A DNA stretch of 64,000 nucleotides from Minisyncoccia bacterium (GTDB lineage Bacteria; Patescibacteriota; Minisyncoccia; Phycocordibacterales; Phycocordibacteraceae): NCBI GenBank assembly GCA_038212075.1, contig JBBQUV010000001.1, positions 35,200 through 99,199 of the forward strand, in the 5' to 3' direction. Shown one piece after another: positions 4,293 to 37,721 of this stretch; positions within the stretch are counted from its first letter, which is position 1; the number at the start of each line of letters is the position of its first letter. Below the pieces are notes generated by a model that searched no databases, was not told the origin of the DNA, and worked only from the letters and a program-made list of their open reading frames with translations. Both the position numbers and the translations under genes were made by a program.

Positions 4293-5525
4293 CTATCTCC
4301 TCACGGGACGATTGTTGTTGACTGTTGGTTTTCTCGCTTCAAATGTTGGCTTGGGTGCCGGTGGCGGTTCGCCACCGATTTTCCGTGCCAAAGCATCTGC
4401 AACGGGCTTGAGTACTCCGTTAATGGCGGCGTTCGCGTCGAGGTCTTTGATACCGAAAACGGTTTCGTCGACTTTTCGAGTAGTTGCCAAGCCCATTTGC
4501 ATCTCGACGCTGGTAAGTGCGTCTTTGATGTTTATGCCGCTTGCAACCTGATCATCGACCATTTTTTTGATGGCCAGATTCTGCTCTATCTTCGCCGCCA
4601 TTTCGTCGGCTTGGTTTGCCTTAGCGAGAGCAGCCTCACGACGAGACTTCGGAATGTCAAAATATTCGACATCCGCGCCAGTGATTTGTACGCCTCTTGC
4701 GAGTGCGTACGAAAGAAACTGGCCGGCACGGTCGGCGATGATCTGAACACTGTGTTCTCCATCGACGAACTTGTCTTTGTCATCGTATAGACTGTTGTAG
4801 AGCTGGGCGTGCCTCTCAGCACTTTCCAGTGTTCCGTCATCAATTGGAAGATTAACCCAGTCTTTGACGTCGTCCTTGAGGTCGACAGAATCCTCCGCTC
4901 TTTTGAGTTGGTTCACAAAAAAGCGAATAACTGATTTGAACTCAAGGTCCAGAAGTGTGTCGATGGCCTTGACTTCTGTAAGCGACAGAACGGGATTTAC
5001 CGTCCTGCGGGTGAAGAACGCATTGGTCTCCACCTTCAAGTTATCGCCACCGGCGAGGTCGAAGAACGGTTCCGGATTGACCGGGTATTCCCGCATTTCA
5101 ACCGGAACACTTCCTTCAATTCCCGGTATACGCGGATGAATACCTGCGGTAAGCAGGGCGCCATCCGGTTTACCGAAGCGCGTTGAGACGCCTTCGCTAC
5201 CAAGCGGTACCTCGTTTGCCGCATTTGACGACTCACGCATGATCACGCGTATGACGTTGCCGCCCACGACGATCAAAACGATAAGTGCAATCGTGGCTGA
5301 GAAGTAGAAGGCAATCACGGCCGCAAAGGGAATCGCAACTGCGAACCCAGTAATGGCCGAGATGATACCGACACGCTTGAGACTTTCCCAAGGTGTAATG
5401 AGTGTGCCAGGCGCTGGTGCCGCCGCCCCTGGGGCGATACGGACAAACGCAAGCACCTCCGTGCGATATCGAAGTGCCAGAACTGCCATAAGCAGAACTG
5501 CCACGATGATTGCGATCGTTGCCAT
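4293..5525 (-). CDS. SPFH/band-7 (stomatin/flotillin-like) membrane protein
   Basis: 410 aa; N-terminal TM helices followed by an SPFH-like core and an Ala/Glu-rich coiled segment (REAALAKANQADEMAAKIEQ). Confidence 0.55.
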   Translation of the reverse strand: MATIAIIVAVLLMAVLALRYRTEVLAFVRIAPGAAAPAPGTLITPWESLKRVGIISAITGFAVAIPFAAVIAFYFSATIALIVLIVVGGNVIRVIMRESSNAANEVPLGSEGVSTRFGKPDGALLTAGIHPRIPGIEGSVPVEMREYPVNPEPFFDLAGGDNLKVETNAFFTRRTVNPVLSLTEVKAIDTLLDLEFKSVIRFFVNQLKRAEDSVDLKDDVKDWVNLPIDDGTLESAERHAQLYNSLYDDKDKFVDGEHSVQIIADRAGQFLSYALARGVQITGADVEYFDIPKSRREAALAKANQADEMAAKIEQNLAIKKMVDDQVASGINIKDALTSVEMQMGLATTRKVDETVFGIKDLDANAAINGVLKPVADALARKIGGEPPPAPKPTFEARKPTVNNNRPVRR

Positions 5526-5910: not shown

Positions 5911-5936
5911 CAAAGTATTTCTAGCCACCAAAACAA

Positions 5937-5963
5937 AAACAGCACGTACGTGCTGTTTTTGTT
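5937..5963 (+). terminator. rho-independent terminator after tRNA-Lys
   Basis: cagcacg/cgtgctg palindrome followed by tttttgttt. Confidence 0.6.
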
Positions 5964-6039
5964 TACTATGTGACGAGGTGGCTCGGTCACGAGTTGCGGA
6001 CGGATTGCTCCAAGTATTCGCAATCCGTCTCGCACTCTC

Positions 6040-6124
6040 GACCCGGGCTCGCCGTTGCTTCGCAACAAGGCTGTGCCTTTCGAGTCTCACACGCACGACG
6101 CGCAGGCGTCGTGCTCCTCGGCAC
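6040..6124 (+). repeat. structured element with an inverted copy of the tRNA-Leu(TAA) T-arm and acceptor 3' end, plus a hairpin insertion
   Basis: CTCGCCGT, a hairpin, GCTGTGCC, TTCGAGTCTCAC (matches the T-loop/stem of the adjacent minus-strand tRNA), hairpin gcacgacgcgcaggcgtcgtgc, then TCCTCGGCA (acceptor 3' side). Same layout as the elements at 13427-13505 and 29165-29277. Confidence 0.5.
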
Positions 6125-6147
6125 ATAACTGCGCTTCGCTTGCTCTG

Positions 6148-6236
6148 TGCCGAGGGTGAGACTCGAACTCACATGAGGTGTTTAAAGACCTCTAGGGATT
6201 TTAAGTCCCCTACGTCTACCATTCCGTCACCTCGGC
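6148..6236 (-). tRNA. tRNA-Leu (anticodon TAA)
   Basis: Acceptor GCCGAGG/CCTCGGC, anticodon stem GGGGA/TCCCT with loop CTTAAAA, long variable arm, T-loop TTCGAGT. Confidence 0.8.
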
Positions 6237-13322: not shown

Positions 13323-13396
13323 GGGTCCATCGTATAATGGTAGTACAGCGGCCTCCAAATCCGCTAGCGTAGGTTCGATTCCTACTGGGCCCGCCA
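13323..13396 (+). tRNA. tRNA-Trp (anticodon CCA), with encoded 3' CCA
   Basis: Acceptor GGGTCCA/TGGGCCC, anticodon loop CTCCAAA, T-arm GTAGG-TTCGATT-CCTAC. The anticodon stem has a C-T mismatch at its base. Confidence 0.7.
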
Positions 13397-13427: not shown

Positions 13428-13505
13428 GGTGGGCCCAAGCAGGCGTGGGGCGCCTGCGTGTAGGAATCGAATGCCGGAGCGCGACGGCGCGAGGCGGGGT
13501 CGCGG
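13427..13505 (+). repeat. structured element with an inverted copy of the tRNA-Trp acceptor 3' end and T-arm, plus a hairpin
   Basis: TGGTGGGCCCA (reverse complement of the tRNA 3' end), hairpin caggcg-tgggg-cgcctg, GTAGGAATCGAA (reverse complement of the T-loop/stem), then GCCGGAGC and ACGGCGAGGCGGGG, motifs shared with the elements at 6040 and 29165. Confidence 0.5.
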
Positions 13506-13647
13506 AATTTTCTAGCAAGAAAATATCCGTGACCGCAAAGCGGAACCGTAGAATCTACAGGATTTGATAAGCGTACTCGCGGTCCTGCTGGGCTCGCCCT
13601 TGTGGGCAACCTACATCTCTTCAGATTTTGTGAGCTACAATATACAT

Positions 13648-27060: not shown

Positions 27061-28095
27061 ATGGCACATCAGTCTCTCTACCGCACGCATCGCCCGCATA
27101 CCTTTAAAGATGTGGCGGGGCAGGAGCACATCACGTCAGCGCTTGCGGAGCAGATTAAGTCCGAAAAGGTGGGGCATGCCTATTTGTTTGCTGGTTCGCG
27201 TGGACTGGGGAAGACCTCGGTGGCGCGTATTTTTGCGAACGAGCTTGGATGCAAAAATAACGATTTATATGAAATAGACGCGGCAAGCAACAACAGCGTA
27301 GATGACATTCGCGCACTCACGGAAAACGTATATACACTCCCGTTTGAGTCGCCATATAAGGTATACATTTTGGACGAAGCACACATGCTTTCAAAGGGCG
27401 CATGGAATGCTTTTTTGAAAACCCTTGAAGAACCGCCAGCGCATGCCATTTTCATTCTTGCCACCACCGAGCTTTCTCGTGTGCCGGAAACTGTGCAGTC
27501 GCGGTGCCAAGTGTTCACTTTTAAAAAACCAACACGCAGTGAACTGGCGAAGGTTGTTTCAAGTGTCGCGAAAAAAGAAGGATATGTGATTGAACCATCT
27601 GCCGCAGACCTTATCGCGCTTCTTGCGGAAGGTTCGTATCGCGATGCGCTTTCGGTTTTGGAGCGGGCGCTTTCTGCTGGAAGCGATAAAAAACTCACAC
27701 GAGCAGAGGCAGAGAAGGCAACAGGAGCGCCAAAGCACGAGCTGGTGCACTCACTCGTGTCCGCGCTCGCCAAAGGCGAGCGCGCCACAGCACTCACTTC
27801 CATCCGCAAGGCCGCAGATGGAAGTGTTGATATGCAACTCTATTTGTCACTGGTGCTCGACAGTATTCGCGCGGTGCTTTTGGTGCGTTACGCGCCAGAG
27901 CTTCGTAAAGAGTTTCAGGAAGAACTTGGAGCAGATGAGTATGGGGAAATAGAAAAGCTCGCAAGCGACAAGGAGTCAAAACTCACCCACGAAACACTCA
28001 AGGCATTTTTGGATGCGGCGACCCGTATCCGCTATGCACCTGTTGCGTCTCTTCCGCTTGAGCTTGCGGTGTTTGAGCTTTTTAAGACTGAATAA
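27061..28095 (+). CDS. dnaX: DNA polymerase III subunit gamma/tau (short form)
   Basis: HRPxxFxDVxGQ, Walker A GSRGLGKTS, and a sensor region; start chosen at MAHQSLYR. Confidence 0.85.
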   Translation: MAHQSLYRTHRPHTFKDVAGQEHITSALAEQIKSEKVGHAYLFAGSRGLGKTSVARIFANELGCKNNDLYEIDAASNNSVDDIRALTENVYTLPFESPYKVYILDEAHMLSKGAWNAFLKTLEEPPAHAIFILATTELSRVPETVQSRCQVFTFKKPTRSELAKVVSSVAKKEGYVIEPSAADLIALLAEGSYRDALSVLERALSAGSDKKLTRAEAEKATGAPKHELVHSLVSALAKGERATALTSIRKAADGSVDMQLYLSLVLDSIRAVLLVRYAPELRKEFQEELGADEYGEIEKLASDKESKLTHETLKAFLDAATRIRYAPVASLPLELAVFELFKTE

Positions 28096-28898
28096 TGAAA
28101 GATTTTTTCTACTGGATTATTCTTGTAGTTATTGGCGTCAGTGCCGGCGGATTTTTGTACTATAAGCATCTTGATACTCTTCCGTGTACGCACCCAGTTG
28201 AATACTCCATTGGTGCTGTTGATCCGCGGTTTGGAACAAATGCTAGTGAACTCACGAGCGACCTTGCTTTTGGTGCGGCTATTTGGAATAAAGCGGCAGG
28301 GAAGACTCTTTTCACGCTTGTGCCCTCGGGTGGTGTAAAAGTAAATCTTATTTACGACGAACGTGAAGAATCGGCAAAGCTGGGACTTGAAATTGCGAAA
28401 GAGCAAGTGACGACAGATGCTATGCGCGCCACCGTAGATGCAGAGCACGCACAGGTGAAATCGGAACAAGATGCACTGAATGCGGAAATTTCTGCGATAA
28501 ACGCGCGCGGCGGCGCAACCCCTGCCGACCGCACGCGCATTACTGCAGAACAGCAATCACTAGAGCTTCGTATTGAAACATTAAATAATGATGTTGCTTC
28601 CTTTAACGCCCGCATTCGCGCGCTGAATGCACAAGTTGCAGAATTTAATAAAACCGCGGGACATTTGTTTAAAGAAGGTGAGTATGTTCAAGATGCAAGC
28701 GGAAAACGCATAAATATTTTTGAATTTGTCGGAAAAAATCAGCTGGAGCGCGTACTCGCGCACGAGCTTGGGCACGCGGTGGGGCTCGATCACAACGACG
28801 ACCCCGACTCCATAATGTACGCCAACAACGAAAGCGGAAACTTAATCCCCACAGCCACCGACGTTTCTGCCCTTAAGTCCCTCTGCGGGATTTCGTAG
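28095..28898 (+). CDS. membrane-anchored matrixin-like zinc metalloprotease (metzincin) with a coiled-coil insert
   Basis: N-terminal TM helix; HELGHAVGLDHNDDPDSIMY, which is HExxHxxGxxH plus a Met-turn; a central Ala/Gln-rich heptad-like region. Confidence 0.7.
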   Translation: MKDFFYWIILVVIGVSAGGFLYYKHLDTLPCTHPVEYSIGAVDPRFGTNASELTSDLAFGAAIWNKAAGKTLFTLVPSGGVKVNLIYDEREESAKLGLEIAKEQVTTDAMRATVDAEHAQVKSEQDALNAEISAINARGGATPADRTRITAEQQSLELRIETLNNDVASFNARIRALNAQVAEFNKTAGHLFKEGEYVQDASGKRINIFEFVGKNQLERVLAHELGHAVGLDHNDDPDSIMYANNESGNLIPTATDVSALKSLCGIS

Positions 28899-28949
28899 AC
28901 CCTCACGGTCACCGCATTTTTTTGGTATGGTAGTGGAAGTGCGCTATTT

Positions 28950-29090
28950 GGGGGATCGTCTAACGGTAAGCAGAGCTTTCTGCCTGCGCTCGCTCGGAAC
29001 GGATAAGCAAAGCCTCATCCTTTCCTCGCTCGCTTGGCGGTAGGACAGCGGCCTTTGAAGCCAGTGATACGATAGAAATGTTCGATAATT
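28950..29090 (+). pseudogene. pseudo-tRNA: partial duplicate of tRNA-Gln (5' half and anticodon arm) split by a ~64-nt insertion, lacking T-arm and acceptor 3' strand
   Basis: GGGGGATCGTCTAACGGTA and GGACAGCGGCCTTTGAAGCC are identical to the downstream tRNA-Gln but are separated by an insert. The 3' portion diverges (AGTGATACGATAGAAATGTTCGATAATTT). Confidence 0.6.
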
Positions 29091-29092
29091 TT

Positions 29093-29161
29093 GGGGGATC
29101 GTCTAACGGTAGGACAGCGGCCTTTGAAGCCGTTAATTTTGGTTCGATTCCAAGTCCCCCA
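29093..29161 (+). tRNA. tRNA-Gln (anticodon TTG)
   Basis: Acceptor GGGGGAT/GTCCCCC, anticodon stem GCGGC/GCCGT with loop CTTTGAA, T-arm TTGG-TTCGATT-CCAA, discriminator A. Confidence 0.75.
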
Positions 29162-29164
29162 GCA

Positions 29165-29277
29165 AAAATGTGCGGAGCAGATTTTAGTGCGGGGAAGCGA
29201 GACGTCTGCACGTCTCGTGTCTTGGAATCGAACGCCGGAGCATGTTCCATTCAGCAGAATGGAACGGCGAGGCGGTG
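29165..29277 (+). repeat. structured element with an inverted copy of the tRNA-Gln T-arm, plus hairpins
   Basis: Hairpin cgagacgtctgcacgtctcg, CTTGGAATCGAA (reverse complement of the tRNA-Gln T-loop/stem), CGCCGGAGC, hairpin ttccattcagcagaatggaa, and ACGGCGAGGCGGTG. Shares motifs with the elements at 6040 and 13427. Confidence 0.5.
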
Positions 29278-29391
29278 CTCGACCAAAGTTTCTTATGAGC
29301 GAAGCGAATTAGAAACTTGAAGTGCTCTTGTGGTATAGACCATTACCGAGCGACGGCGAGGTAGTGAGTTGAAGGAGATAAGTGTAATCAC

Positions 29392-29409
29392 GGTCCAAGT
29401 TCCCCAGCA
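29392..29409 (+). repeat. direct repeat of the tRNA-Gln 3' terminus (att-like)
   Basis: GGTCCAAGTTCCCCAGCA compared with the tRNA 3' end ATTCCAAGTCCCCCAGCA (16/18 identical), about 230 bp downstream of the tRNA. Confidence 0.5.
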
Positions 29410-29508
29410 AATTAGGACTAAGCACGTATGAGGGTTCCATTTGCGTTGCAGCGAAGTCCTTTTTGTTCAGGTCGTTGTAATTAACGCTTTGTCAAGTTAT
29501 AGTAAGTC

Positions 29509-29691
29509 ATGTATATGGAGGAAAATCCGGACATTCTGACACTAGAGCAAGCCAGTAAGCTCCTGAATTGCCACCCAAACACGTTGAGGAATTGGGACAA
29601 TAAAGGAATCCTGAAGGCCATTCGCTTTGGTACGCGGAAGGATCGTCGGTACAGAAAAAGCGACATACTTAAGCTGCTAAAACAAAAATAA
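29509..29691 (+). CDS. excisionase/MerR-family helix-turn-helix DNA-binding protein (Xis-like)
   Basis: 60 aa; LTLEQASKLLNCHPNTLRNWDNKGILKAIRFGTRKDRRY matches the HTH_17/excisionase pattern. Confidence 0.6.
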   Translation: MYMEENPDILTLEQASKLLNCHPNTLRNWDNKGILKAIRFGTRKDRRYRKSDILKLLKQK

Positions 29692-29693
29692 TT

Positions 29694-30620
29694 ATGAAAA
29701 ACTACTATCGCATAATGCTTGGACGAAAAAGTAGCCACGCTGATGAGGCACATAAGGGCAATTTCGTTGCGGCGGGCTTCATTAAAGACAAGGACCTCAC
29801 GCGTCACCTACCTGACAATTGGCGTGATTTTAATAAAGAATTCATCCCATTATTTCTTGATCAGAATCCTGAAAAGACAAAGATATCAGCGGGTCTCGCG
29901 TGCGGAATGCTCTGGACTGTCGCTAAGGGGGTTTTGGTGGGAGACATAGTGCTCTGCCCGGATGGTAAGGGTAGTTACTACGCAGGCGAGGTTACTGGCG
30001 AGTATGAATATCATAAGGGCGAAACGTTGCCGCATCGTCGGTCGGTTCGTTGGTTCACTCGTGCCATCTCACGTGACGAAATGAGCGAACCACTCAAGAA
30101 TTCAGCAGGTTCGATTGGTACGGTCAGCAATATAACGAAATATGCGGAGGAAATTGAGGCGCTAATTTCCGGCAGTCTTCCTGCCTCAATCATTTCGACT
30201 GATGCGACCATTGAAGACCCAAGCGAATTCGCGCTTGAAAAACATTTGGAGGACTTTCTTGTTCAAAACTGGCATGGCACAGAGTTAGGTAAGCGATTCG
30301 ATATTTATGAAGAGGATGGTGAAAAGGTTGGGCAACAATACCCAAGCGATACCGGTCCCATTGATATTCTCGCTATCAGTAAAGACAAAAAAGAGATAGC
30401 TGTCATCGAGCTCAAAAAAGGTCGTGCAAGTGATGTGGTCGTGGGACAAGTTCAACGATACATGGGGTATGTGAAAGAAGAATTAGCTGAAGACAATCAG
30501 TCCGTGCGAGGCATCATCATTGCGTTCGAGAATGATGTCAAAATAAATCGTGCCCTCTCTGTTGCTCCGAACATTGAGTTCTACACCTACAAAATCCACT
30601 TTAAGCTAGAGAAAAAATAA
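29694..30620 (+). CDS. two-domain protein: N-terminal unknown domain plus a C-terminal PD-(D/E)xK nuclease-fold domain (restriction-endonuclease-like)
   Basis: C-terminal GPIDILAISKDKKEIAVIELKKG.....GQVQRYMGYV, a D...E-L-K nuclease signature with a downstream Q..Y segment. It starts 2 nt after the xis-like gene. Confidence 0.55.
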   Translation: MKNYYRIMLGRKSSHADEAHKGNFVAAGFIKDKDLTRHLPDNWRDFNKEFIPLFLDQNPEKTKISAGLACGMLWTVAKGVLVGDIVLCPDGKGSYYAGEVTGEYEYHKGETLPHRRSVRWFTRAISRDEMSEPLKNSAGSIGTVSNITKYAEEIEALISGSLPASIISTDATIEDPSEFALEKHLEDFLVQNWHGTELGKRFDIYEEDGEKVGQQYPSDTGPIDILAISKDKKEIAVIELKKGRASDVVVGQVQRYMGYVKEELAEDNQSVRGIIIAFENDVKINRALSVAPNIEFYTYKIHFKLEKK

Positions 30621-30758
30621 TTTCATGAGCAAAAGAGAAACAAATTCAAGTATGTCCAAAGAGCAGGAGCGAGCAGAGGATTGATGTGGTTGAATTAAAC
30701 AAGTTTGCAAAGCTATATAAAAAAGAATTAAAACATTTTATAAATTAACTTTAATATT

Positions 30759-31376
30759 ATGGATTCAAAAGAAACAAAAAATATATGGATAGTGGTCGTT
30801 GTTATTGCATTGATAGCGGGTGCATATTATTTTGGCACAGCATCAAAAAATCAAACTGGAGTTACAGATAATACACAAGATACTAATACGCTTACACCCA
30901 CCCAAGAAACTGCCACGCAACAAAATCAGGTTGCTCCAGTTGTTACCATTAAACCAAAAGTTACTGTCCCACAGAATACATACACTAACTTCGAGTTGTC
31001 AGAAAATCCAAAATATTTATTTAGCAAAGATTTTAACCCAAATAAAGCAAAGGTCTTTGGAGTTGGTATAGGTGACTTAAGAAGTAATATTACTTCTATA
31101 GTACCTCAACAAGAATACGGAAGCTGGGTAAGAACAACAAATTCAACTGCATATCGTATAGTAAATGGCATAGTGGTGGAAATAGCGCTTAATAATGATG
31201 GCATAGCTAATCTTTTTAGGACAGATGAAATTATTATAAAATTCGGTCAATCAGACCAAACTAAAACAACCGGTAACCCTCCATACACTACGACCACCTA
31301 TTACTACGTAAACAGAGGCTTGGTTGTTTATGATTATGGATCATCGGGTATAAAAGTAAATATTATTGGCAACTAA
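30759..31376 (+). CDS. hypothetical membrane-anchored/secreted protein (AT-rich gene)
   Basis: 205 aa, N-terminal TM helix, Thr/Gln-rich linker. Noticeably lower GC than the flanking DNA. Confidence 0.45.
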   Translation: MDSKETKNIWIVVVVIALIAGAYYFGTASKNQTGVTDNTQDTNTLTPTQETATQQNQVAPVVTIKPKVTVPQNTYTNFELSENPKYLFSKDFNPNKAKVFGVGIGDLRSNITSIVPQQEYGSWVRTTNSTAYRIVNGIVVEIALNNDGIANLFRTDEIIIKFGQSDQTKTTGNPPYTTTTYYYVNRGLVVYDYGSSGIKVNIIGN

Positions 31377-31381
31377 AATGT

Positions 31382-32287
31382 TTGAACAGAGCTGAGTTTT
31401 TTATGTCTATACCAGAAAACTTTTTTAAAGATTCGAACGGAATAATCAAGTGGCACCAAGAACACCACCCGAAATCTTACGAAAGCTATTTTCTGATAAA
31501 AGAGAAAGTTAAAAATTCCAAATTTTCTGGCTCGGCTGGACTTCTGCGAAATTTAGAAGGAAATAAAACTGTCACAGGATTTCTGTCTTTTTTGACTGAA
31601 ATAAATCTTGCCAATTTGTTTTTGGATAAGAAGGTTAAAGATTTGTCTTATGAACCGAAACATATGTCTGGTGTTGATTTCTCTTTTAATGACATCGCGA
31701 TATCTGTTAAGAATCTCCACCCAAAAAATTACGAAAAGAGCGAACAACAAGTAATAGATGCATTTCGTACGGCAGGAGGCGGTAAAACGAGTTTGACTCA
31801 TAAAAACTTCTCCAGTATTGCTATTGAAGTTAAAAAAACTGAAATGGGTACTTATGGCTGGGAGAGGTTAGAAACTGGACACAGCGGATTTCTCGATAGT
31901 GATTTATACGAAATGTCTGCTCCATTAAATTACATTGGAAAATTTGAACAGTCAGATATAAAAAATAACAAAAGGGTCTTATTTTTCTTTATTCAATCAA
32001 GTGATTTTGCACAGTATTATATTCAAGATATCGTAATTTGGTATTTTGGATATCCTGTTGAAAAGTATCAACCAATTTTTCAGAACGATATGAATTGGTA
32101 TAACAAGCTTCTAAAAACACCTCCTAAGAAAAATAATATTGATGCAATCGTATTTATGTATGCACCCAATACCTTATTGAGCTGGCCACTTGGCTGTTTG
32201 GGTGATGTATCAGATAAGGCGGCACGATTACAGATTTATGCGAAGGAAAAATCTTTTTCCGAACAGATAAAATTAATTTTATCTTAA
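31382..32287 (+). CDS. hypothetical protein (AT-rich gene)
   Basis: 301 aa, Lys/Asn-rich, no recognised motif; lies 6 nt after the previous gene, so likely an operon. Confidence 0.45.
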   Translation: MNRAEFFMSIPENFFKDSNGIIKWHQEHHPKSYESYFLIKEKVKNSKFSGSAGLLRNLEGNKTVTGFLSFLTEINLANLFLDKKVKDLSYEPKHMSGVDFSFNDIAISVKNLHPKNYEKSEQQVIDAFRTAGGGKTSLTHKNFSSIAIEVKKTEMGTYGWERLETGHSGFLDSDLYEMSAPLNYIGKFEQSDIKNNKRVLFFFIQSSDFAQYYIQDIVIWYFGYPVEKYQPIFQNDMNWYNKLLKTPPKKNNIDAIVFMYAPNTLLSWPLGCLGDVSDKAARLQIYAKEKSFSEQIKLILS

Positions 32288-32483
32288 GGGAGCAATCCTC
32301 GCTGTTTTATAATATTTCCTAAAAACGGCGGGGATTTGTGCGCGAACGGGAGGGTGGCTCAAGCGCATTTGCATTTGAGCCTCGGACATTTTCGCTAGGG
32401 CGTCCTGACTCACGGATGAGCGCCGCCGTTATCTTGCAATACAGAAATTCGAAGCGGAAGCGACACCACATACAGTCGATATG

Positions 32484-32915
32484 AAAACGAGAAAGGGGGT
32501 TGGCTGAGCCGGTTGGTCGAGCCCTGCCGAGACGAGGCGAAGCTGGGGGAAGGATTCCTTCCCCCAAACAGTCTCCTGCCCTCGCACCGCTCCGCAGAGC
32601 GATAATACGCTGGGGTATGCGAAACGTCTTTTCAAAGAGGGGCGCCTGTCGGAGCAAGGCATTCACTTTTATAAGTTAGGCAGTGCAAAACCCACTCACG
32701 ATTACGGCATCCCTAAGAATCCTTCGATGCCAGTTGAGCTGAGTGAAATGCTCAAAAAGGACTCGAAGGCGAAAAAATTCTTTGAAGCATTTTCGCCCTC
32801 AAACAAAAAATCTATCTATCGCTGGATACTCAAAGGGAAACTTGAAGCAACAAGACAAAAGCGTGTTATGCACGTAGTTACTAAGGCGCGAGAAGGCAGT
32901 CGGGACGTAATTTAA
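32484..32915 (+). pseudogene. YdeI/OmpD-associated (DUF1801-like) family fragment; N-terminally truncated, with only the last 62 codons ATG-initiated (32727..32915)
   Basis: The C-terminal segment KAKKFFEAFSPSNKKSIYRWILKGKLEATRQKRV matches the YdeI C-terminal pattern. The frame stays open upstream to 32484 without a start codon. Confidence 0.4.
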
Positions 32916-32964
32916 AACTCCTAGCCTCATACCAGATGGTCAGGTCTAAGTTATACTTAAAAAT

Positions 32965-33321
32965 ATGCGAAACATTGCGCCAGAAATAGTTCGCAAAAGA
33001 TTGTTGGTTGAGGCGAAGTTTTCAATTGCTGTTGATGCCGAAGTGGTGAAGAATTTTCTGCTTTCACTTGCCGCTCACCTAGAACTGCGAACATATGGTG
33101 ACCCTATTATTCACTCTCCAGGCGGGGAAGGGAAAGAGGAGAATCAAGGCTTTGACGCTTTCATTCCGCTCATTGATTCCGGTATTTCTTTGTACGTATG
33201 GACAAATGTGCAATTTCTTTCTTGCGTTCTTTATACTTGCAAGGACTTCTCTACGGAGAACGCTGTTACATTCACAACCGATTTCTACAAAACAACCGAT
33301 TTGGTATTTCAGGAATTCTAG
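32965..33321 (+). CDS. S-adenosylmethionine decarboxylase-like protein (SpeH/AdoMet_dc family)
   Basis: 118 aa; the pattern RLLVEA......LAAHLELRTYGDPIIHSPG....DSGISLYVWTNVQFLSCVLYTCKDF resembles small pyruvoyl-dependent AdoMetDC. Confidence 0.45.
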   Translation: MRNIAPEIVRKRLLVEAKFSIAVDAEVVKNFLLSLAAHLELRTYGDPIIHSPGGEGKEENQGFDAFIPLIDSGISLYVWTNVQFLSCVLYTCKDFSTENAVTFTTDFYKTTDLVFQEF

Positions 33322-33380
33322 TTCAAAGAAATAACGGTGACGCCCAATGTGGAATCGAGAATCCGTACTATACTCAACAC

Positions 33381-34211
33381 ATGTCTAATAAAACAGCTCG
33401 CAACATTGGGCAGGGAATTCTTGCAATCGTTGTGCTCGCCGCTATTGGTGCCGGACTTTACTACGCAACCATGCATCGAAGTGTTTCTTCCTGTACTAAT
33501 CTCGTACTCACTCATTCACTGACCATTGGTAGCACTGATACTGCCAATGATGAAGAAGTGTCGAAACTGCAAACATATCTGCGTGCTTGGGGTGAAAAGA
33601 TTATGGAACCAAAAGTAAAAGATCTCCCCGTTACCGGTTACTTTGGTTCGCAGACACGCACTGCCGTCGCCTTGTATCAGAAAATTCATAACATACCGAC
33701 CGATCCAGAGAGCGATGTCGCTACCACTACTGAGTGGGATAACCCAAATTACGGCATCGTTGGTCCACGTACTCGGAACTTGCTTAACAAAAGTTGTCTT
33801 GAAGGGGGATTCAGTGCTGGTATTGCATCACCTGCAACTGACCCCCTCATCACGAGTGTTGTGCTCGGTGCCTATCAGCAGTCGCTCTCTCAACCACTTA
33901 CGGTGGCTGTGACGGTACTGCCCATCACCTTCAAAGGATTCATAGAACTATATATTGTTCCTGCAAATCATAGTGGGCAGTGGCAGACGCTTGGGAGAGA
34001 GGTCGCCCAGACGGGTGACATTAGAGATGGATTCTCGGGCACACTAAAATTTAACATCACTGATTTTTCAGGTGGTGGTCTCCCTCAGCATGCTGGGGTA
34101 GTGGATGTTACTCCTGGTACGTACACTATCGTCGCACATGCCTATGACGGCACTTCAAATGGCACTCGTGTCATGGACACGATGAGTCTACCCGTTACCT
34201 TCACGCGGTAG
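33381..34211 (+). CDS. membrane-anchored protein with a peptidoglycan-binding-like domain and a C-terminal beta-rich domain
   Basis: TM helix, then LQTYLRAWG...LPVTGYFGSQTRTAVALYQ, which has PG_binding_1-like spacing. The internal Met after the upstream overlap was chosen as the start. Confidence 0.5.
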   Translation: MSNKTARNIGQGILAIVVLAAIGAGLYYATMHRSVSSCTNLVLTHSLTIGSTDTANDEEVSKLQTYLRAWGEKIMEPKVKDLPVTGYFGSQTRTAVALYQKIHNIPTDPESDVATTTEWDNPNYGIVGPRTRNLLNKSCLEGGFSAGIASPATDPLITSVVLGAYQQSLSQPLTVAVTVLPITFKGFIELYIVPANHSGQWQTLGREVAQTGDIRDGFSGTLKFNITDFSGGGLPQHAGVVDVTPGTYTIVAHAYDGTSNGTRVMDTMSLPVTFTR

Positions 34212-34257
34212 TACGAAGACTTGCGGTTTCAGTAGGGTGTGATATAATGAGTTTACT

Positions 34258-34584
34258 GTGACTTACACCAAGAAACCAAGCGGTTATGCTCGCAAGAGCT
34301 TCGGCACTCGCCCAAGCTCAGGGTTTAAACAAGACTCTCGTGGTGAATCGGCAGAGCGCTTCCAAGCGACCTGTAACGAATGCCATGCGAAGTGTGAAGT
34401 ACCGTTTCGCCCTAATGGCAAGAAGCCGGTTTATTGCCGCAATTGTTTTAAGGGCAAGGAAGAGACTCCGTCATATGGTGCTCGTGGATCCTTTAAGGAC
34501 CACAGCCGCCAAGATCCGGATTTCGCTCAGCGTCTCGACGCTATCGAAGCGAAACTAGACCGCATTCTCAAGTCACTCAGTTAA
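34258..34584 (+). CDS. zinc-ribbon domain protein (CxxC...CxxC), basic N-terminus
   Basis: CNECHAKCEVPFRPNGKKPVYCRNCF; followed by a strong terminator. Confidence 0.5.
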   Translation: MTYTKKPSGYARKSFGTRPSSGFKQDSRGESAERFQATCNECHAKCEVPFRPNGKKPVYCRNCFKGKEETPSYGARGSFKDHSRQDPDFAQRLDAIEAKLDRILKSLS

Positions 34585-34600
34585 TTGAATTAAGCGAGAA

Positions 34601-34631
34601 AAACCCGAAACCTTTGGTTTCGGGTTTTTCT
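34601..34631 (+). terminator. rho-independent terminator
   Basis: cccgaaacc-tttg-gtttcggg followed by tttttc. Confidence 0.75.
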
Positions 34632-34707
34632 ATACTCTTCGTTACTAAACGTACTGTTAGACTTTCTGATTAAATCGCTATAGTATCACCCGACTGGGCA
34701 TTAAGGA

Positions 34708-35031
34708 GTGGTTGAAATGAGTGAACTTTGGGAAATCTTGGTTCCTCGCGCGTTGAATGGCGGGGAAGAAATACCCGTTTCGTACCATCAAGCGTGGGAC
34801 AAGCGGGTGCGTGAAATTGCAGGTGGCCTCACGATTTTGAAGTCAGCCCGAGGCATCTGGGAAAGTCCGACAGGAGAGATCTTTCAAGAAGCGATGATCC
34901 CCGTTCGGATAGCCTGTTCCGAAGTGCAGATACGTCAGATCGCCAATTTGACCATGGATTACTATGACCAAGAAGCGGTCATGGCGTATCGGGTAAGCGA
35001 TCTTGTCATTATCCAGCACAAGGGATCATGA
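34708..35031 (+). CDS. hypothetical protein
   Basis: 107-aa ORF with an upstream RBS-like GGAG; no motif recognised. Confidence 0.4.
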   Translation: MVEMSELWEILVPRALNGGEEIPVSYHQAWDKRVREIAGGLTILKSARGIWESPTGEIFQEAMIPVRIACSEVQIRQIANLTMDYYDQEAVMAYRVSDLVIIQHKGS

Positions 35032-35129
35032 ATACGATTACGAAAACCGTGGCGGCCATTATTCTTTGGCCGCCACGCCCCTTTATATAAGCGTCCGCTC
35101 ATTGTTCCAGATTGAGGTAGAATAAAAAT

Positions 35130-35630
35130 ATGCAGAATATAGACTGGAACACTAAAGTTAAGGAAGCATTGGATCGTACTGAATTCATGGCAATCTCCAC
35201 TCTTGGAAGCGATGGAAGTTGGATATGTCCAGTGCAATTTGGGCACAACGAAAATTTTGAGCTCTATTTTAAATCAATGCCGCACTCAAAGCATATGCAG
35301 AATTTAAAAAATGACGAACGTGTCTCAGTTGCCATTTTCAAGACGGAACGTTTTCCAGGCACCCGAGAAGTGATGGGTTTACAGTTACGTGGAAAGGCTA
35401 CCGTTTTAACCGAAAGGAGCGATATTGAAGAAGCCGCCCGCCACATGTATGGCCGTGACCCAAGAAAGATAGATTATCGGACAAAGGTGGACGAACATCT
35501 TGGTCCTGACGCAGTTTGGAATTTCGTGAAAATAACACCGGAAGAAGCGTGGTGCTTCGACTCACGAGTTTTTGAAGAAGAGAGGGTGCAGATTGATTTG
35601 GCAACGTTAAAGCTTAAGCTCAACTACTAG
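35130..35630 (+). CDS. pyridoxamine 5'-phosphate oxidase-like FMN-binding family protein (general stress protein 26-like)
   Basis: 166 aa; matches the PNPOx-like split-barrel pattern (FMAISTLGSDGSWICPVQF...ELYFKS). Confidence 0.55.
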   Translation: MQNIDWNTKVKEALDRTEFMAISTLGSDGSWICPVQFGHNENFELYFKSMPHSKHMQNLKNDERVSVAIFKTERFPGTREVMGLQLRGKATVLTERSDIEEAARHMYGRDPRKIDYRTKVDEHLGPDAVWNFVKITPEEAWCFDSRVFEEERVQIDLATLKLKLNY

Positions 35631-35701
35631 GAGGGTTCCACTATCGTTCCAAACAGTAAAAGTATCACCATCGTTCCAAATAATTTTAAAAACTTCTTAC
35701 G

Positions 35702-36178
35702 CTAGGGTTTTAAAATTAGAGGAAGTTCTAGTTCTTTTTCCATTAAAATTAATTGCTTGAGTTGTTCGTCCATTCCTTCAATTATTTCTAACTGTTTAGG
35801 AACGAGACTGTCGTTCCTCGTATCATTTGTTGTCTCACCGCTTTTCCCTGGCACGACATATACGTTACCTGTTTCAGGGGTAGCTCCGGGAACAATTTTA
35901 ATTCCTTCCGTTCTAAATCTTTCTAGTACCGTATCTATGGGGGTTACGTACCCGATAAGGTCTTCTTCGTCGGCTTTCATTTTTGCATACGCTGTCGCAT
36001 CTATTCCTGGAAAAGGAAAAACCTTTCCGCCCTCGGCAAGTTCAATTGCCAAGGTCGCCATCTCTCTTTTCTGCCGGATGCGTTTTCCTTCAGGGCTTTC
36101 AAATATTTTGGCAGGTCCTTCTTCTCGCATATGCGCAAGCGTACCACGTGGCCTATGTAGCACATCACTAACGTTCAA
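35702..36178 (-). CDS. hypothetical protein
   Basis: 158-aa ORF; a bidirectional hairpin lies between it and the upstream gene. Confidence 0.4.
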   Translation of the reverse strand: MNVSDVLHRPRGTLAHMREEGPAKIFESPEGKRIRQKREMATLAIELAEGGKVFPFPGIDATAYAKMKADEEDLIGYVTPIDTVLERFRTEGIKIVPGATPETGNVYVVPGKSGETTNDTRNDSLVPKQLEIIEGMDEQLKQLILMEKELELPLILKP

Positions 36179-36247
36179 TTTTATAAAAGAAAACCGCCCC
36201 TTCGTCGAAACGAAGGTTTGGTTTTCGTTTCGCCGAGGGGCGGTTGG

Positions 36248-36526
36248 TCAGCACATCAGCATGGTCAGGCCATAGACCGAGCCCGACAGGATACTGCAGC
36301 GATCCTTGTCGATGGTCACTGTCGGCATTTCATCGCTGTGGCAGATATGACCGTTGGTGAAGGTCAGCTTTCCGTGATCCACAGTGATGTCCATTATCGC
36401 TCCCTCCGTTTGGCAGAGATGGACGATGCTGGTGTTTGCGTGGTGGCGCGGCTTCGGCGTTTTTGCCTCAGCACCGGCAGTAGTTGCCATACAAATGGCC
36501 GTTGCGATAAGAAGAGCTTTCTTCAT
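36248..36526 (-). CDS. small secreted Cys/His-rich protein
   Basis: Signal peptide MKKALLIATAICMATTAGAEA; 92 aa with 5 Cys and 6 His. Confidence 0.5.
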   Translation of the reverse strand: MKKALLIATAICMATTAGAEAKTPKPRHHANTSIVHLCQTEGAIMDITVDHGKLTFTNGHICHSDEMPTVTIDKDRCSILSGSVYGLTMLMC

Positions 36527-36663
36527 GGATGCCTCCCTGTGCATCAAAAGGTTACATGTTTATTATAATATACTATATATGTAAAGTCAATATTTCAGTA
36601 AAAAAGTCTATGGCGGCTCGGTGCTATACTTTTTACATCACTCTTATTCACTAGCGCACCACT

Positions 36664-37086
36664 ATGCCGGACTTCATTAATCTTTGGGTAATAGGGATTT
36701 CAATGATTCTTTCCGTAGTCCTTGGTTTTATTTGGTACGGTCCATTGTTTGGAAAGAAATGGATGGAACTGTCCGGCATTCCTATGCCGAGCGAAAAACC
36801 ATCTATGAAAATGATGGCAAAACCTATTCTCTTGTCCTTGATTGGTGCCCTCTTTATGAGCTTCGCACTTGTGTCGGTAACCGCGTTTCATAACGCGTAC
36901 TGGGACGTGACCGGCTACGCCGCAGGCCTTTCGTTCGCATTCTTTCTTTGGCTTGGATTTATTGTGCCTCCGTACTTGAATTTTTCTGGATGGGAACAGA
37001 AATCGTGGACGCTCTTCTGCATTAATACCGGCTATTGGCTTGTTCTGCTTTTTGTTATTGCTTCGCTCGCTGTTGTCCTTGGATAG
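36664..37086 (+). CDS. DUF1761-like integral membrane protein
   Basis: 140 aa with four predicted TM helices. Confidence 0.45.
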   Translation: MPDFINLWVIGISMILSVVLGFIWYGPLFGKKWMELSGIPMPSEKPSMKMMAKPILLSLIGALFMSFALVSVTAFHNAYWDVTGYAAGLSFAFFLWLGFIVPPYLNFSGWEQKSWTLFCINTGYWLVLLFVIASLAVVLG

Positions 37087-37101
37087 GGTAGAATTTTAAG
37101 A

Positions 37102-37572
37102 ATGGAGCGGAATAAGGCGATACCTGCGGCGTATCTTTTGCTTGAAAAAGAAGGCAAGTTTCTTATCGCACGACGTTGTAATACTGGATATTCGGACGGG
37201 CAGTATCAGGTGCCTGCAGGGCATGTAGACGCGGGAGAGCTTCCAAGCGAAGCGCTTATTCGTGAAGCAAAAGAGGAGATTGGCATTGCTATAGCTCCTG
37301 AGGACGTGAAGCTGGTGCATGTTTCGTATCGCCCAAAGCACGACAATACGGATAATCGTGTGGATTTTTTCTTTACGGTGCAAAAGTGGGGTGGTGAAGT
37401 GGAAAATAAAGAACCACATAAGTGTGATGATTTGCAGTGGGTGTTGCCTACGGAACTTCCGGAGAACATGACCGCGCATGTGCGTGATGCCTTCGAGTGT
37501 ATTCAAAAAGGAATTATGTATAAAGAGCTGGATCTAGAATTTTTAAAACTGCACGGGCTGTATCGCCCATAA
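37102..37572 (+). CDS. NUDIX hydrolase
   Basis: Nudix box GHVDAGELPSEALIREAKEEIGI. Confidence 0.8.
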   Translation: MERNKAIPAAYLLLEKEGKFLIARRCNTGYSDGQYQVPAGHVDAGELPSEALIREAKEEIGIAIAPEDVKLVHVSYRPKHDNTDNRVDFFFTVQKWGGEVENKEPHKCDDLQWVLPTELPENMTAHVRDAFECIQKGIMYKELDLEFLKLHGLYRP

Positions 37573-37721
37573 CCTGCCTATGCAACAAAAGTACTGGATG
37601 ATTGCGACAATCGTGGGTGCGGTCATTATCGTTGTTGGCGTTATCGCACTTGTCGCTATTCCCGTGTAAGGGTTTGCAACTTTGTACGTCTATAGAGCGT
37701 AATAAGAGTATCGCCAAGGCC

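Follow-up and report, generated by a model that had tools for sequence, protein, structure and literature searches.

Introduction

Integrative elements that target tRNA genes are marked by a direct repeat of the tRNA 3′ end, which starts in the T-loop and may overrun the tRNA, and the loci that they occupy are hotspots of variable genes. A repeat of this kind lies behind the tRNA-Gln gene of a Minisyncoccia bacterium (Patescibacteriota), in a 64,000-nucleotide stretch of contig JBBQUV010000001.1 (positions 35,200 to 99,199; assembly GCA_038212075.1) that was analysed as a whole and is called the window hereafter. An earlier reading of this DNA made from the sequence alone (the sequence-only reading) had taken the repeat, together with a pseudo-tRNA upstream and atypical genes downstream, for the footprint of tRNA-targeted integration. 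Here we show that positions 29164-29411 of the window, which end with this repeat, are one copy of a family of conserved structured non-coding elements found behind co-oriented tRNA genes of Patescibacteria. In contrast to integrative elements, its repeats enclose only about 130 to 230 nt of covarying non-coding structure, with no integrase and no cargo; it adds an inverted copy of the tRNA 3′ end, and the variable genes lie outside the repeats.

Other described systems resemble the element in part. Like T-box riboswitches, it would be a cis-encoded structured RNA with segments complementary to one tRNA, and the two share a wide range of tRNA identities and G.A-rich motifs. T-boxes, however, lie upstream of mRNAs, read the anticodon and NCCA in trans and control a terminator or a ribosome binding site, whereas the element lies downstream of a tRNA gene, complements about 21 nt of the acceptor and T 3′ strand, has a sense decoy and gives no Rfam T-box match. 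With introns of groups I and II, whose guides (P1/P10 and the exon- and intron-binding sites, EBS-IBS) covary with the host flank, it has in common a conserved core, such covarying guides, the lack of an open reading frame (ORF), multiple copies and the orientation of the host; unlike them, it leaves its host tRNA uninterrupted, duplicates part of what would be the ‘exon’, and has a core that is too small and matches no intron model. The nearest literature that we found concerns group I introns in the anticodon loops of Patescibacteria tRNAs, a radiation whose tRNA genes are known intron hosts, rich in ORF-less introns (PMC13011429). The integron attC and CTX-phage attP sites likewise have inverted segments that fold to imitate a duplex target, with structure conserved above sequence, but in the element the unpaired core sequence is strongly conserved and carries RNA-type motifs, with no IntI or Xer linkage and no cassette. 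Finally, miniature inverted-repeat transposable elements (MITEs), repetitive extragenic palindromic (REP) repeats and the tRNA-like punctuation RNAs (mascRNA, 3′ external transcribed spacers) are small, multi-copy and non-coding, occur in tRNA units and are possibly excised by processing enzymes; they differ from the element, whose arms are copied from the neighbouring tRNA, which forms a three-way junction, and whose 3′ end is paired and is not a free NCCA. Full-text literature searches returned no account of such a family of tRNA-mirroring elements, which is apparently previously undescribed.

If the family is as it appears, it would represent an extra layer of tRNA control or parasitism in a huge and poorly understood radiation of minimal genomes, each element being tailored to its one tRNA by some 21 nt of antisense sequence and a sense decoy. 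A switch, should that reading be true, would provide riboswitch-like control of tRNA supply from downstream of the gene, and the origin of the inverted and direct tRNA copies could reveal a new mechanism of templated duplication or insertion. The family also carries a warning for annotation: repeats of tRNA 3′ ends, which island-finding tools ordinarily take for att scars, can in Patescibacteria belong to such an element, and scoring them as scars would lead to false island calls.

A structured element follows tRNA-Gln

The intact tRNA-Gln(TTG) gene lies at 29092-29163 on the plus strand (ARAGORN; Rfam tRNA, 60.9 bits), with the T-loop landmarks G53 at 29142 and C56 at 29145. The 248 nt from the end of the tRNA through the repeat fold at −95.4 kcal/mol, against −71.3 ± 4.8 kcal/mol for shuffled sequences (z = −5.0), and all of the modules described here are on the plus strand. 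The element begins with a spacer, AAAAATGTGCGGAGCAGATTTTAG (29164-29187), which alignment shows to be conserved at the orthologous Gln loci L217 and L223 (L-numbers are the labels of fetched loci). The first part of an antisense arm follows, TGCGGGGAA (29188-29196), which complements the acceptor 3′ strand according to the fold, a duplex test and the alignment; here, it fits the downstream copy, UUCCCC(A)GCA, better than the tRNA itself. In the fold, a hairpin called P0, GCGAGACGT CTGC ACGTCTCGT (29197-29218), splits the arm at the junction of acceptor and T-stem. The second part of the arm, CTTGGAATCGAAC (29221-29233), is the reverse complement of tRNA-Gln G53-G65, that is, of T-loop and T-stem 3′ strand, at 13 of 13 positions.

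The core is made of two further helical regions. P2 (29233-29274) has a CGCC/GGCG stem, a G-GA/GA internal loop and a variable hairpin with an AGCA loop. The J2/3 and P3 region (29275-29393) is about 49 nt larger than in the Gln orthologs, as seen in the fold and in alignment with L217 and L025, and is followed by GAT and a 14-nt insert; the insert, which separates this T-loop part from the direct copy, is common to the window, L217 and L025. The last module is the direct copy of the tRNA-Gln 3′ end, TCCAAGTTCCCCAGCAAA (29394-29411), comprising T-stem 3′ strand, acceptor 3′ strand, discriminator and CAAA. It matches 29149-29166 at 17 of 18 positions, from the T-stem 3′ strand to +4, and starts 231 nt past the tRNA; 0.08 such matches are expected by chance at up to 3 mismatches. 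This is the 18-nt repeat that the sequence-only reading had noticed (and counted as 16/18), and a search of the 64 kb for further copies, which that reading had proposed, found no third copy with up to 3 mismatches. The repeat is the last module of the element, where it pairs with the antisense arm and closes the junction. In the window, a C-to-T change in the direct copy is matched by a GGGGGA-to-GGGGAA change in the antisense arm, which preserves the pairing of arm and decoy; as a single event, this compensating change is modest evidence.

The covariance model R1, built on the family described below, matched positions 29193-29322 with 63 bits (E 1e-14), starting 29 nt after the end of tRNA-Gln and with P3 enlarged relative to the orthologs. 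Thus the Gln element has the core, a same-strand tRNA upstream, the split antisense arm and the direct 3′ copy, and its membership of the family is well supported. A scan of 28850-29550 with Rfam 15, which includes tmRNA, group I and II introns, T-box, small ribozymes and Y RNA, returned the tRNA only at E up to 10. The segment GGAAUCGAAC resembles the transfer-messenger RNA (tmRNA) 5′ motif GGAUUCGAC, but this identification was rejected, as the architecture differs and neither ARAGORN nor Rfam gave a tmRNA match. Reading the junction as a hammerhead, a hairpin ribozyme or a k-turn was also rejected; on reasoning, strand lengths and loop sizes do not fit, and there is no Rfam match.

The element belongs to a family that mirrors neighbouring tRNAs

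The starting scan, of species-representative genomes with the pattern AATCGAAYGCCGGAGC, gave mostly chance matches. About 42 Patescibacteria loci were kept after the motif scan and a filter for extended conserved context. In about 36 of these 42, a same-strand tRNA ends 20-220 nt upstream, and in about 25 the element ends in a copy of its own tRNA 3′ end that matches at 15-17 of 17 positions. Model R1, with the core GAACGCCGGAGC ... GCGAGGCGGUG ... AG.CCGAG ... CGAGAG.CG, matched 55 times in candidate phyla radiation (CPR; Patescibacteria) loci, 13 times in metagenome loci, once in L217 and three times in the window. A tRNA on the same strand precedes 61 of 70 elements at a distance below 250 nt, and of the others three lie at contig ends and six have no upstream tRNA; the tRNA identities that carry an element number at least 13. 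At several loci, elements lie between co-oriented tRNAs.

The canonical unit, about 150-250 nt long as an element, follows a fixed order. The tRNA is succeeded by a short, often palindromic spacer and by an inverted copy of its acceptor 3′ strand, which sometimes takes in CCA. Next come the P0 hairpin (AAGC...GCGU), an inverted copy of the T-stem 3′ strand with the T-loop, and GAA. P2 consists of CGCC/GGCG, a G-GA/GA loop and a variable hairpin, and is followed by GUG; P3 consists of GCCC/GGGC, AG.CC/GG.CG, a tandem GA/GA loop and a variable hairpin, and is followed by the direct copy. The direct copy begins at a fixed point of the T-loop, T55|C56 (or C56|G57), and ends variably, anywhere between the last nucleotide of the tRNA and a point 20 nt or more inside the trailer.

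Structure conservation was assessed on subsets of the family. In an RNAalifold consensus of 20 members, 26 of 39 pairs showed compensatory changes. For the three-way-junction core, the count came to 40 pairs, of which 27 varied in a compensatory way. For 19 members, 94.8% of alignment cells were paired (75.9% in shuffles), and the covariation score reached 0.529, compared with 0.181 in shuffles and at most 0.15 in slid-partner controls. P0 showed compensatory changes across the family in eight of its nine pairs.

The arms track the tRNA next to which they lie. An antisense 13-mer matched at 12/13 or better in 39 of 60 cognate pairs and in 7.5% of non-cognate pairs, and a direct copy of 15/15 was found in 15 of 60 cognate pairs and in none of 3498 non-cognate ones. 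Variation of the T-loop is followed by the element: tRNAs with TTCGAGT, TTCGAAT, TTCAATT, TTCAACT and TTCAAGT have elements with ACTCGAA, ATTCGAA, AATTGAA, AGTTGAA and ACTTGAA, respectively. The separation of cognate from non-cognate pairs and an antisense arm that tracks the T-loop indicate that both arms derive from the neighbouring tRNA. A MITE was rejected as an explanation, since the arms copy the neighbouring tRNA and differ between copies, and the duplicated segment is variable, from 15 to more than 39 nt.

Neither known RNAs nor shared neighbours accompany the family. The canonical members L079, L112, L117, L053 and L217 gave no Rfam 15 match at E up to 1. An all-against-all BLAST of ORFs within 2.5 kb, at 36 loci, found no neighbour protein conserved in more than five loci. 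In viral contigs, the 16-mer motif gave 18 chance matches and the gapped core pattern 78 matches, none of which was confirmed by R1.

Some members depart from the canonical layout. At L235 (4560-5120, minus strand), the tandem array behind tRNA-Ser(CGA) comprises two identical units of 155 nt, whose core is divergent, and then one canonical unit. In the divergent units, the direct copy starts earlier in the T-arm (GGTTCGAATCC...) and R1 scores only 32 bits; these units suggest that there are subfamilies barely detected by R1. At L053 (4796-5060), a repeat unit of tRNA 3′ end, terminator, antisense arm, P0 and core occurs 1.5 times with a period of 177 nt, and the second copy breaks off inside the anti-T arm. 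Elements without a recognisable upstream tRNA include L033, L047, L058, L247 and L263. L058 has kept the spacer of its paralogue L027 and only a scrap of the tRNA, and L047 is a Gln-type-looking element behind a tRNA-like sequence that ARAGORN did not call.

Copies at other tRNAs of the window and at orthologous tRNA-Gln loci

R1 detected three copies in the window, behind tRNA-Gln, tRNA-Trp and tRNA-Leu. The second member (13428-13600, plus strand; E 2e-7) lies behind tRNA-Trp (13323-13396) and its terminator; an 18-mer of the Gln element recurs with 17/18 matches about 70 nt behind this tRNA. The Trp copy has the same layout, tailored to tRNA-Trp, and folds with z = −5.07. The third member (5970-6124, minus strand; 46 bits, E 2e-10) lies 22 nt behind tRNA-Leu(TAA) (6147-6236, minus strand), and its antisense arms match tRNA-Leu at 9/9 and 12/12. 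In both the Trp and the Leu copies, the direct copies are degenerate and the antisense arms match their own tRNAs at 12/13. A strong terminator comes after the Leu copy, at about 5929-5963.

By its matrixin homologs, the window belongs to the Minisyncoccota/Paceibacterota group, and the block dprA-serS-dus-dnaX-matrixin-tRNA-Gln is conserved in L217, L219, L221 and L223. L217 carries the element (R1, 89.6 bits) behind a tRNA-Gln with different acceptor and T stems. Its antisense arms match its own diverged tRNA-Gln at 9/9 and 13/13; its 3′ segment, GATAAATGTAATCATGGTCCAAGTCCCCCAGC, instead retains the tRNA end of the window type. At L223, the spacer, both antisense parts (9/9 and 12/12) and P0 are kept and the core is absent, and at L219 only the scrap GGAATTCGAACCGAGGCCGC is left. 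L025, from Taylorbacteria, has a Gln element of the window's subtype with arms at 9/9 and 12/13. A metagenome scan with the conserved 3′ segment yielded no close Gln orthologs. Taken together, the Gln loci of these relatives indicate that the Gln element is old in the clade, and that it is the antisense arm that continues to fit the tRNA, including where the direct copy has become a fossil.

At L221 (6805-7650), matrixin is followed by an ORF of about 230 aa and by a different, 76-nt tRNA-Gln with an encoded CCA. A displaced tRNA-Gln 3′ fragment, GGTTCGATTCCTAGTCTCCCAGCA, lies 10 nt after this tRNA, the classical signature of replacement or integration.

Function and competing explanations

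From the arrangement of the arms and from predicted folds we infer a function and a mechanism. The reading that we favour, at a probability of roughly 0.4, is a cis-acting antisense/decoy RNA device that affects the folding or processing of the tRNA precursor. The element would be transcribed together with the tRNA. Its antisense arm would pair either with the tRNA's own 3′ strand, blocking the cloverleaf, or with the downstream decoy copy, closing the conserved junction; these two states would be mutually exclusive, and the conserved core would decide between them. The element may have spread among tRNA genes by copying tRNA 3′ ends. In predicted folds of tRNA plus element, the last 13-21 nt of the tRNA pair with the antisense arm in 15 of 16 cases, and the acceptor stem forms in none of the 16. 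These joint folds are 3-29 kcal/mol lower in energy than the separate folds added together, and are more stable still with the direct copy free to pair. It is the exclusive pairing states and the location between co-oriented tRNAs that favour a cis-acting RNA device.

Several observations weigh against such a device. Recovery of the family is biased, because the search patterns came from the sequence of the window, and R1 has an effective sequence number of only 1.41. Nearest-neighbour energies ignore the tertiary structure and modifications of tRNA. Our only grounds for transcription of the element are its orientation and its position inside tRNA clusters, and a terminator-like hairpin stands between tRNA and element at 12 of 36 loci (and after the element at nine of 36). 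Mismatches between antisense arm and tRNA show no bias of G.U over A.C (23 vs 23), and DNA-level copying therefore fits as well as selection on RNA pairing. To our knowledge, the element has no ligand or partner protein. Lastly, some features have the look of mobility or duplication and not of regulation: direct copies that remain exact into the trailer, tandem arrays, and paralogues of 86-93% identity located behind different tRNAs. We propose only tentatively, with the odds against it, that the family is an unrecognised class of RNA device, whether an antisense-plus-decoy switch in which a three-way-junction sensor controls tRNA folding or processing, or a self-propagating RNA element that copies tRNA 3′ ends.

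A selfish, non-autonomous mobile or duplicating element is the main rival, which we consider unlikely. The core would insert behind tRNA genes by targeting the T-loop, the tRNA 3′ end from C56 outward would be a long target duplication, expansion would proceed by unequal exchange between copies, and the RNA fold would serve propagation and not tRNA regulation. This would account for the many tRNA identities, for several copies per genome, for direct repeats that in some cases are exact over 19-39 nt and extend into the trailer, and for the tandem arrays at L235, L069, L101 and L053. It is likewise in keeping with the tRNA-His and tRNA-Glu paralogues of one metagenome-assembled genome (MAG), which are 86% identical in variable columns, with orthologous Gln loci that are variously intact, truncated and decayed, and with arms devoid of a G.U bias. 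However, no transposase, integrase or reverse transcriptase is associated with the family, it is absent from viral contigs, and no known mechanism generates two copies of the target, one inverted and one direct, with a hairpin inserted at a constant position. Vertical inheritance is also indicated by the persistence of orthologous copies in distant genomes: identity is 0.86-0.94 for the Arg-GCG and Gly-GCC copies, and the window, L217 and L025 have the Gln copy in common. Moreover, the perfect match of the antisense arm to the tRNA long outlasts the decay of the direct copy.

Less likely than a selfish element, and improbable in our view, is an intron-like or ribozyme element of the T-loop. 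Here, tRNA positions 1-55 would pair up with the downstream copy as exons, and positions 56-76, the arm and the core would lie inserted at 55/56; alignment of the exons would fall to the antisense arm, in the manner of group I P1/P10 guides, and the core would catalyse or direct cleavage and ligation. The sharp T55|C56 boundary would be explained in this way, as would an antisense arm that is continuous across the junction (AAC opposite G53-T55, then complement from position 56). The minimum-energy fold of the full transcript pairs the tRNA 3′ strand with the arm and is stabler with the downstream copy free, and ORF-less tRNA introns are abundant in Patescibacteria (PMC13011429). Yet the core spans only about 110 nt, Rfam gives no group I, group II or small-ribozyme match, and the upstream tRNA is already complete, which makes splicing unnecessary. 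In addition, the window, L217 and other loci have a downstream copy that has ceased to match the tRNA, and no locus with the interrupted form alone was found.

The remnant of an integrase-mediated island at tRNA-Gln, with the tRNA as attL, the 18-nt repeat as attR and the integrase lost, was the explanation of the sequence-only reading, and it is by now largely refuted. Parts of that reading held. The block of identity runs from the T-loop to the 3′ end, as at the sites of T-loop-targeting integrases; the region after tRNA-Gln holds defence-type genes, and comparison with relatives, which the reading had called for, showed that the genes after tRNA-Gln differ in L217, L219, L221 and L223. An excisionase-like gene and low-GC genes do adjoin, and the displaced fragment at L221 is of the classical kind. 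What failed is the role given to the repeats, which are not the borders of an island: the supposed far border sits on the tRNA side of the variable genes, between these and the tRNA and only 231 nt from it, and no distal repeat exists in the 64 kb. The intervening sequence of about 230 nt is no decayed island DNA but a structured element with strong covariation, conserved behind dozens of different tRNAs; about 60 other tRNAs have a member of the family behind them with no island or shared neighbour. In L217, this 3′ segment is present, the variable genes are lacking and ordinary genes follow 54 nt later. An integrase, which the sequence-only reading had not seen either, is lacking from the 8-kb variable segment in Pfam and PHROG scans, and the excisionase-like gene is partnered by a PDC-S02 defence candidate.

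A DNA-level site, in which the single-stranded element mimics the tDNA 3′ duplex (cf. integron attC, CTX-phage attP) for a recombinase encoded elsewhere, also ranks below the selfish element and is hardly credible. In its favour, the inverted copy and the direct copy together reconstitute the tDNA duplex between C56 and the 3′ end, the arms lack a G.U bias, and the boundary lies at a constant place in the T-loop. Against it, G.U pairs are tolerated in the core helices, conserved tandem G.A loops and junction purines such as those of the element are features typical of RNA motifs, no recombinase is linked, and the orientation is strictly that of the tRNA.

The variable region downstream of the element

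The genes past the element form a variable, defence-type region that is not bounded by the repeats. The stretch up to FMN_bind/ApbE, where synteny with L217 resumes (51% and 68% amino-acid identity), measures 8.2 kb in the window (29412-37600) and about 1 kb in L217. A PNPOx gene was rejected as the L217 anchor for the end of this region, as it is not orthologous (27% identity over 83 aa). No recombinase or integrase was found among the ORFs in 29.5-37.6 kb by Pfam and PHROG scans. ORFs in 22-44 kb were identified as housekeeping genes by synteny and Pfam.

The first gene (29509-29691, plus strand) encodes a small HTH_17/MerR-type DNA-binding protein with a helix-turn-helix (HTH), matched by Pfam HTH_17 at 2e-11, by PADLOC mad1 at 1.6e-9 and by PHROG excisionase and regulator families. 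The fold is excisionase-like, as had been noted, and the gene is paired with a defence candidate: it ends 2 nt upstream of a gene (29694-30620, plus strand) for a 308-aa PD-(D/E)XK/NucS_C protein (Pfam NucS_C, 1.8e-9; PADLOC PDC-S02, 5e-158). The PDC-S02 match (PDLC04799), to a candidate defence family, is full-length, covering residues 1-307 of 308. The pair resembles a small defence module more than it does an excisionase and its cargo.

The genes beyond are compositionally atypical, as had been proposed: a check of the G+C content (GC) showed a drop at 30-32 kb, where values of 0.40 and 0.34 contrast with about 0.49 in the remainder. Two ORFs of 205 and 301 aa occupy 30759-32287, in the stretch of lowest GC of the window (0.34-0.40). 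Neither has a significant Pfam match or any PHROG or PADLOC match, and the 301-aa ORF has a sub-threshold match to PAS_10.

A partial duplicate of tRNA-Gln upstream

The pseudo-tRNA that precedes tRNA-Gln consists of two blocks, both on the plus strand and both somewhat longer than the sequence-only reading had them (19 and 20 nt). Block 1 (28947-28968) is identical at 22/22 positions to 29090-29111, which comprise tRNA-Gln positions 1-20 and two upstream nucleotides; block 2 (29038-29062) is identical at 25/25 positions to 29107-29131, which comprise positions 16-40 (the 3′ side of the D-arm and the anticodon arm). No such matches are expected by chance, judging from dinucleotide shuffles, and no T-arm follows block 2, as had been noted. 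The blocks are separated, in the D-loop, by an insert at 28969-29037 that had been recognised before and measures 69 nt, not 64. It folds best as a GA-rich hairpin and has a CGGTA direct repeat at both flanks, this 5-nt repeat arising because blocks 1 and 2 overlap by CGGTA in the intact tRNA.

The pseudo-tRNA duplicates tRNA-Gln in part (positions −2 to 40), is specific to this lineage and is interrupted by the insert; it is an event separate from the element. Sharp borders and an identity of 100% speak for a partial duplication of recent date. A 5′ pseudo-tRNA is not the product expected of an integration that restores the 3′ end. Among 36 family loci examined, a 5′ remnant was seen at the tRNA-Gln locus alone; an incoming tRNA cassette inserted into the T-loop of the resident tRNA, considered as an explanation of the pseudo-tRNA, was rejected, since 5′ remnants are absent at all other loci.

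An independent assembly, Logan contig L216, is 100% identical to the window over 27410-29126, pseudo-tRNA included. It terminates exactly inside the sequence common to the pseudo-tRNA and tRNA-Gln, which indicates that the short repeat breaks de Bruijn assemblies here and that similar loci may be under-assembled in short-read MAGs.

The 69-nt insert folds better on the minus strand (z = −3.85) than on the plus strand (z = −1.56). On the minus strand, it forms a hairpin of alternating G-C and tandem G.A steps (CGAGCGAGG...CCGAGCGAG). No second copy was present in the fetched data; the insert may be a small mobile or recurrent RNA hairpin. A motif that resembles it lies just downstream of the L058 element, at about 5255-5315 of that locus.

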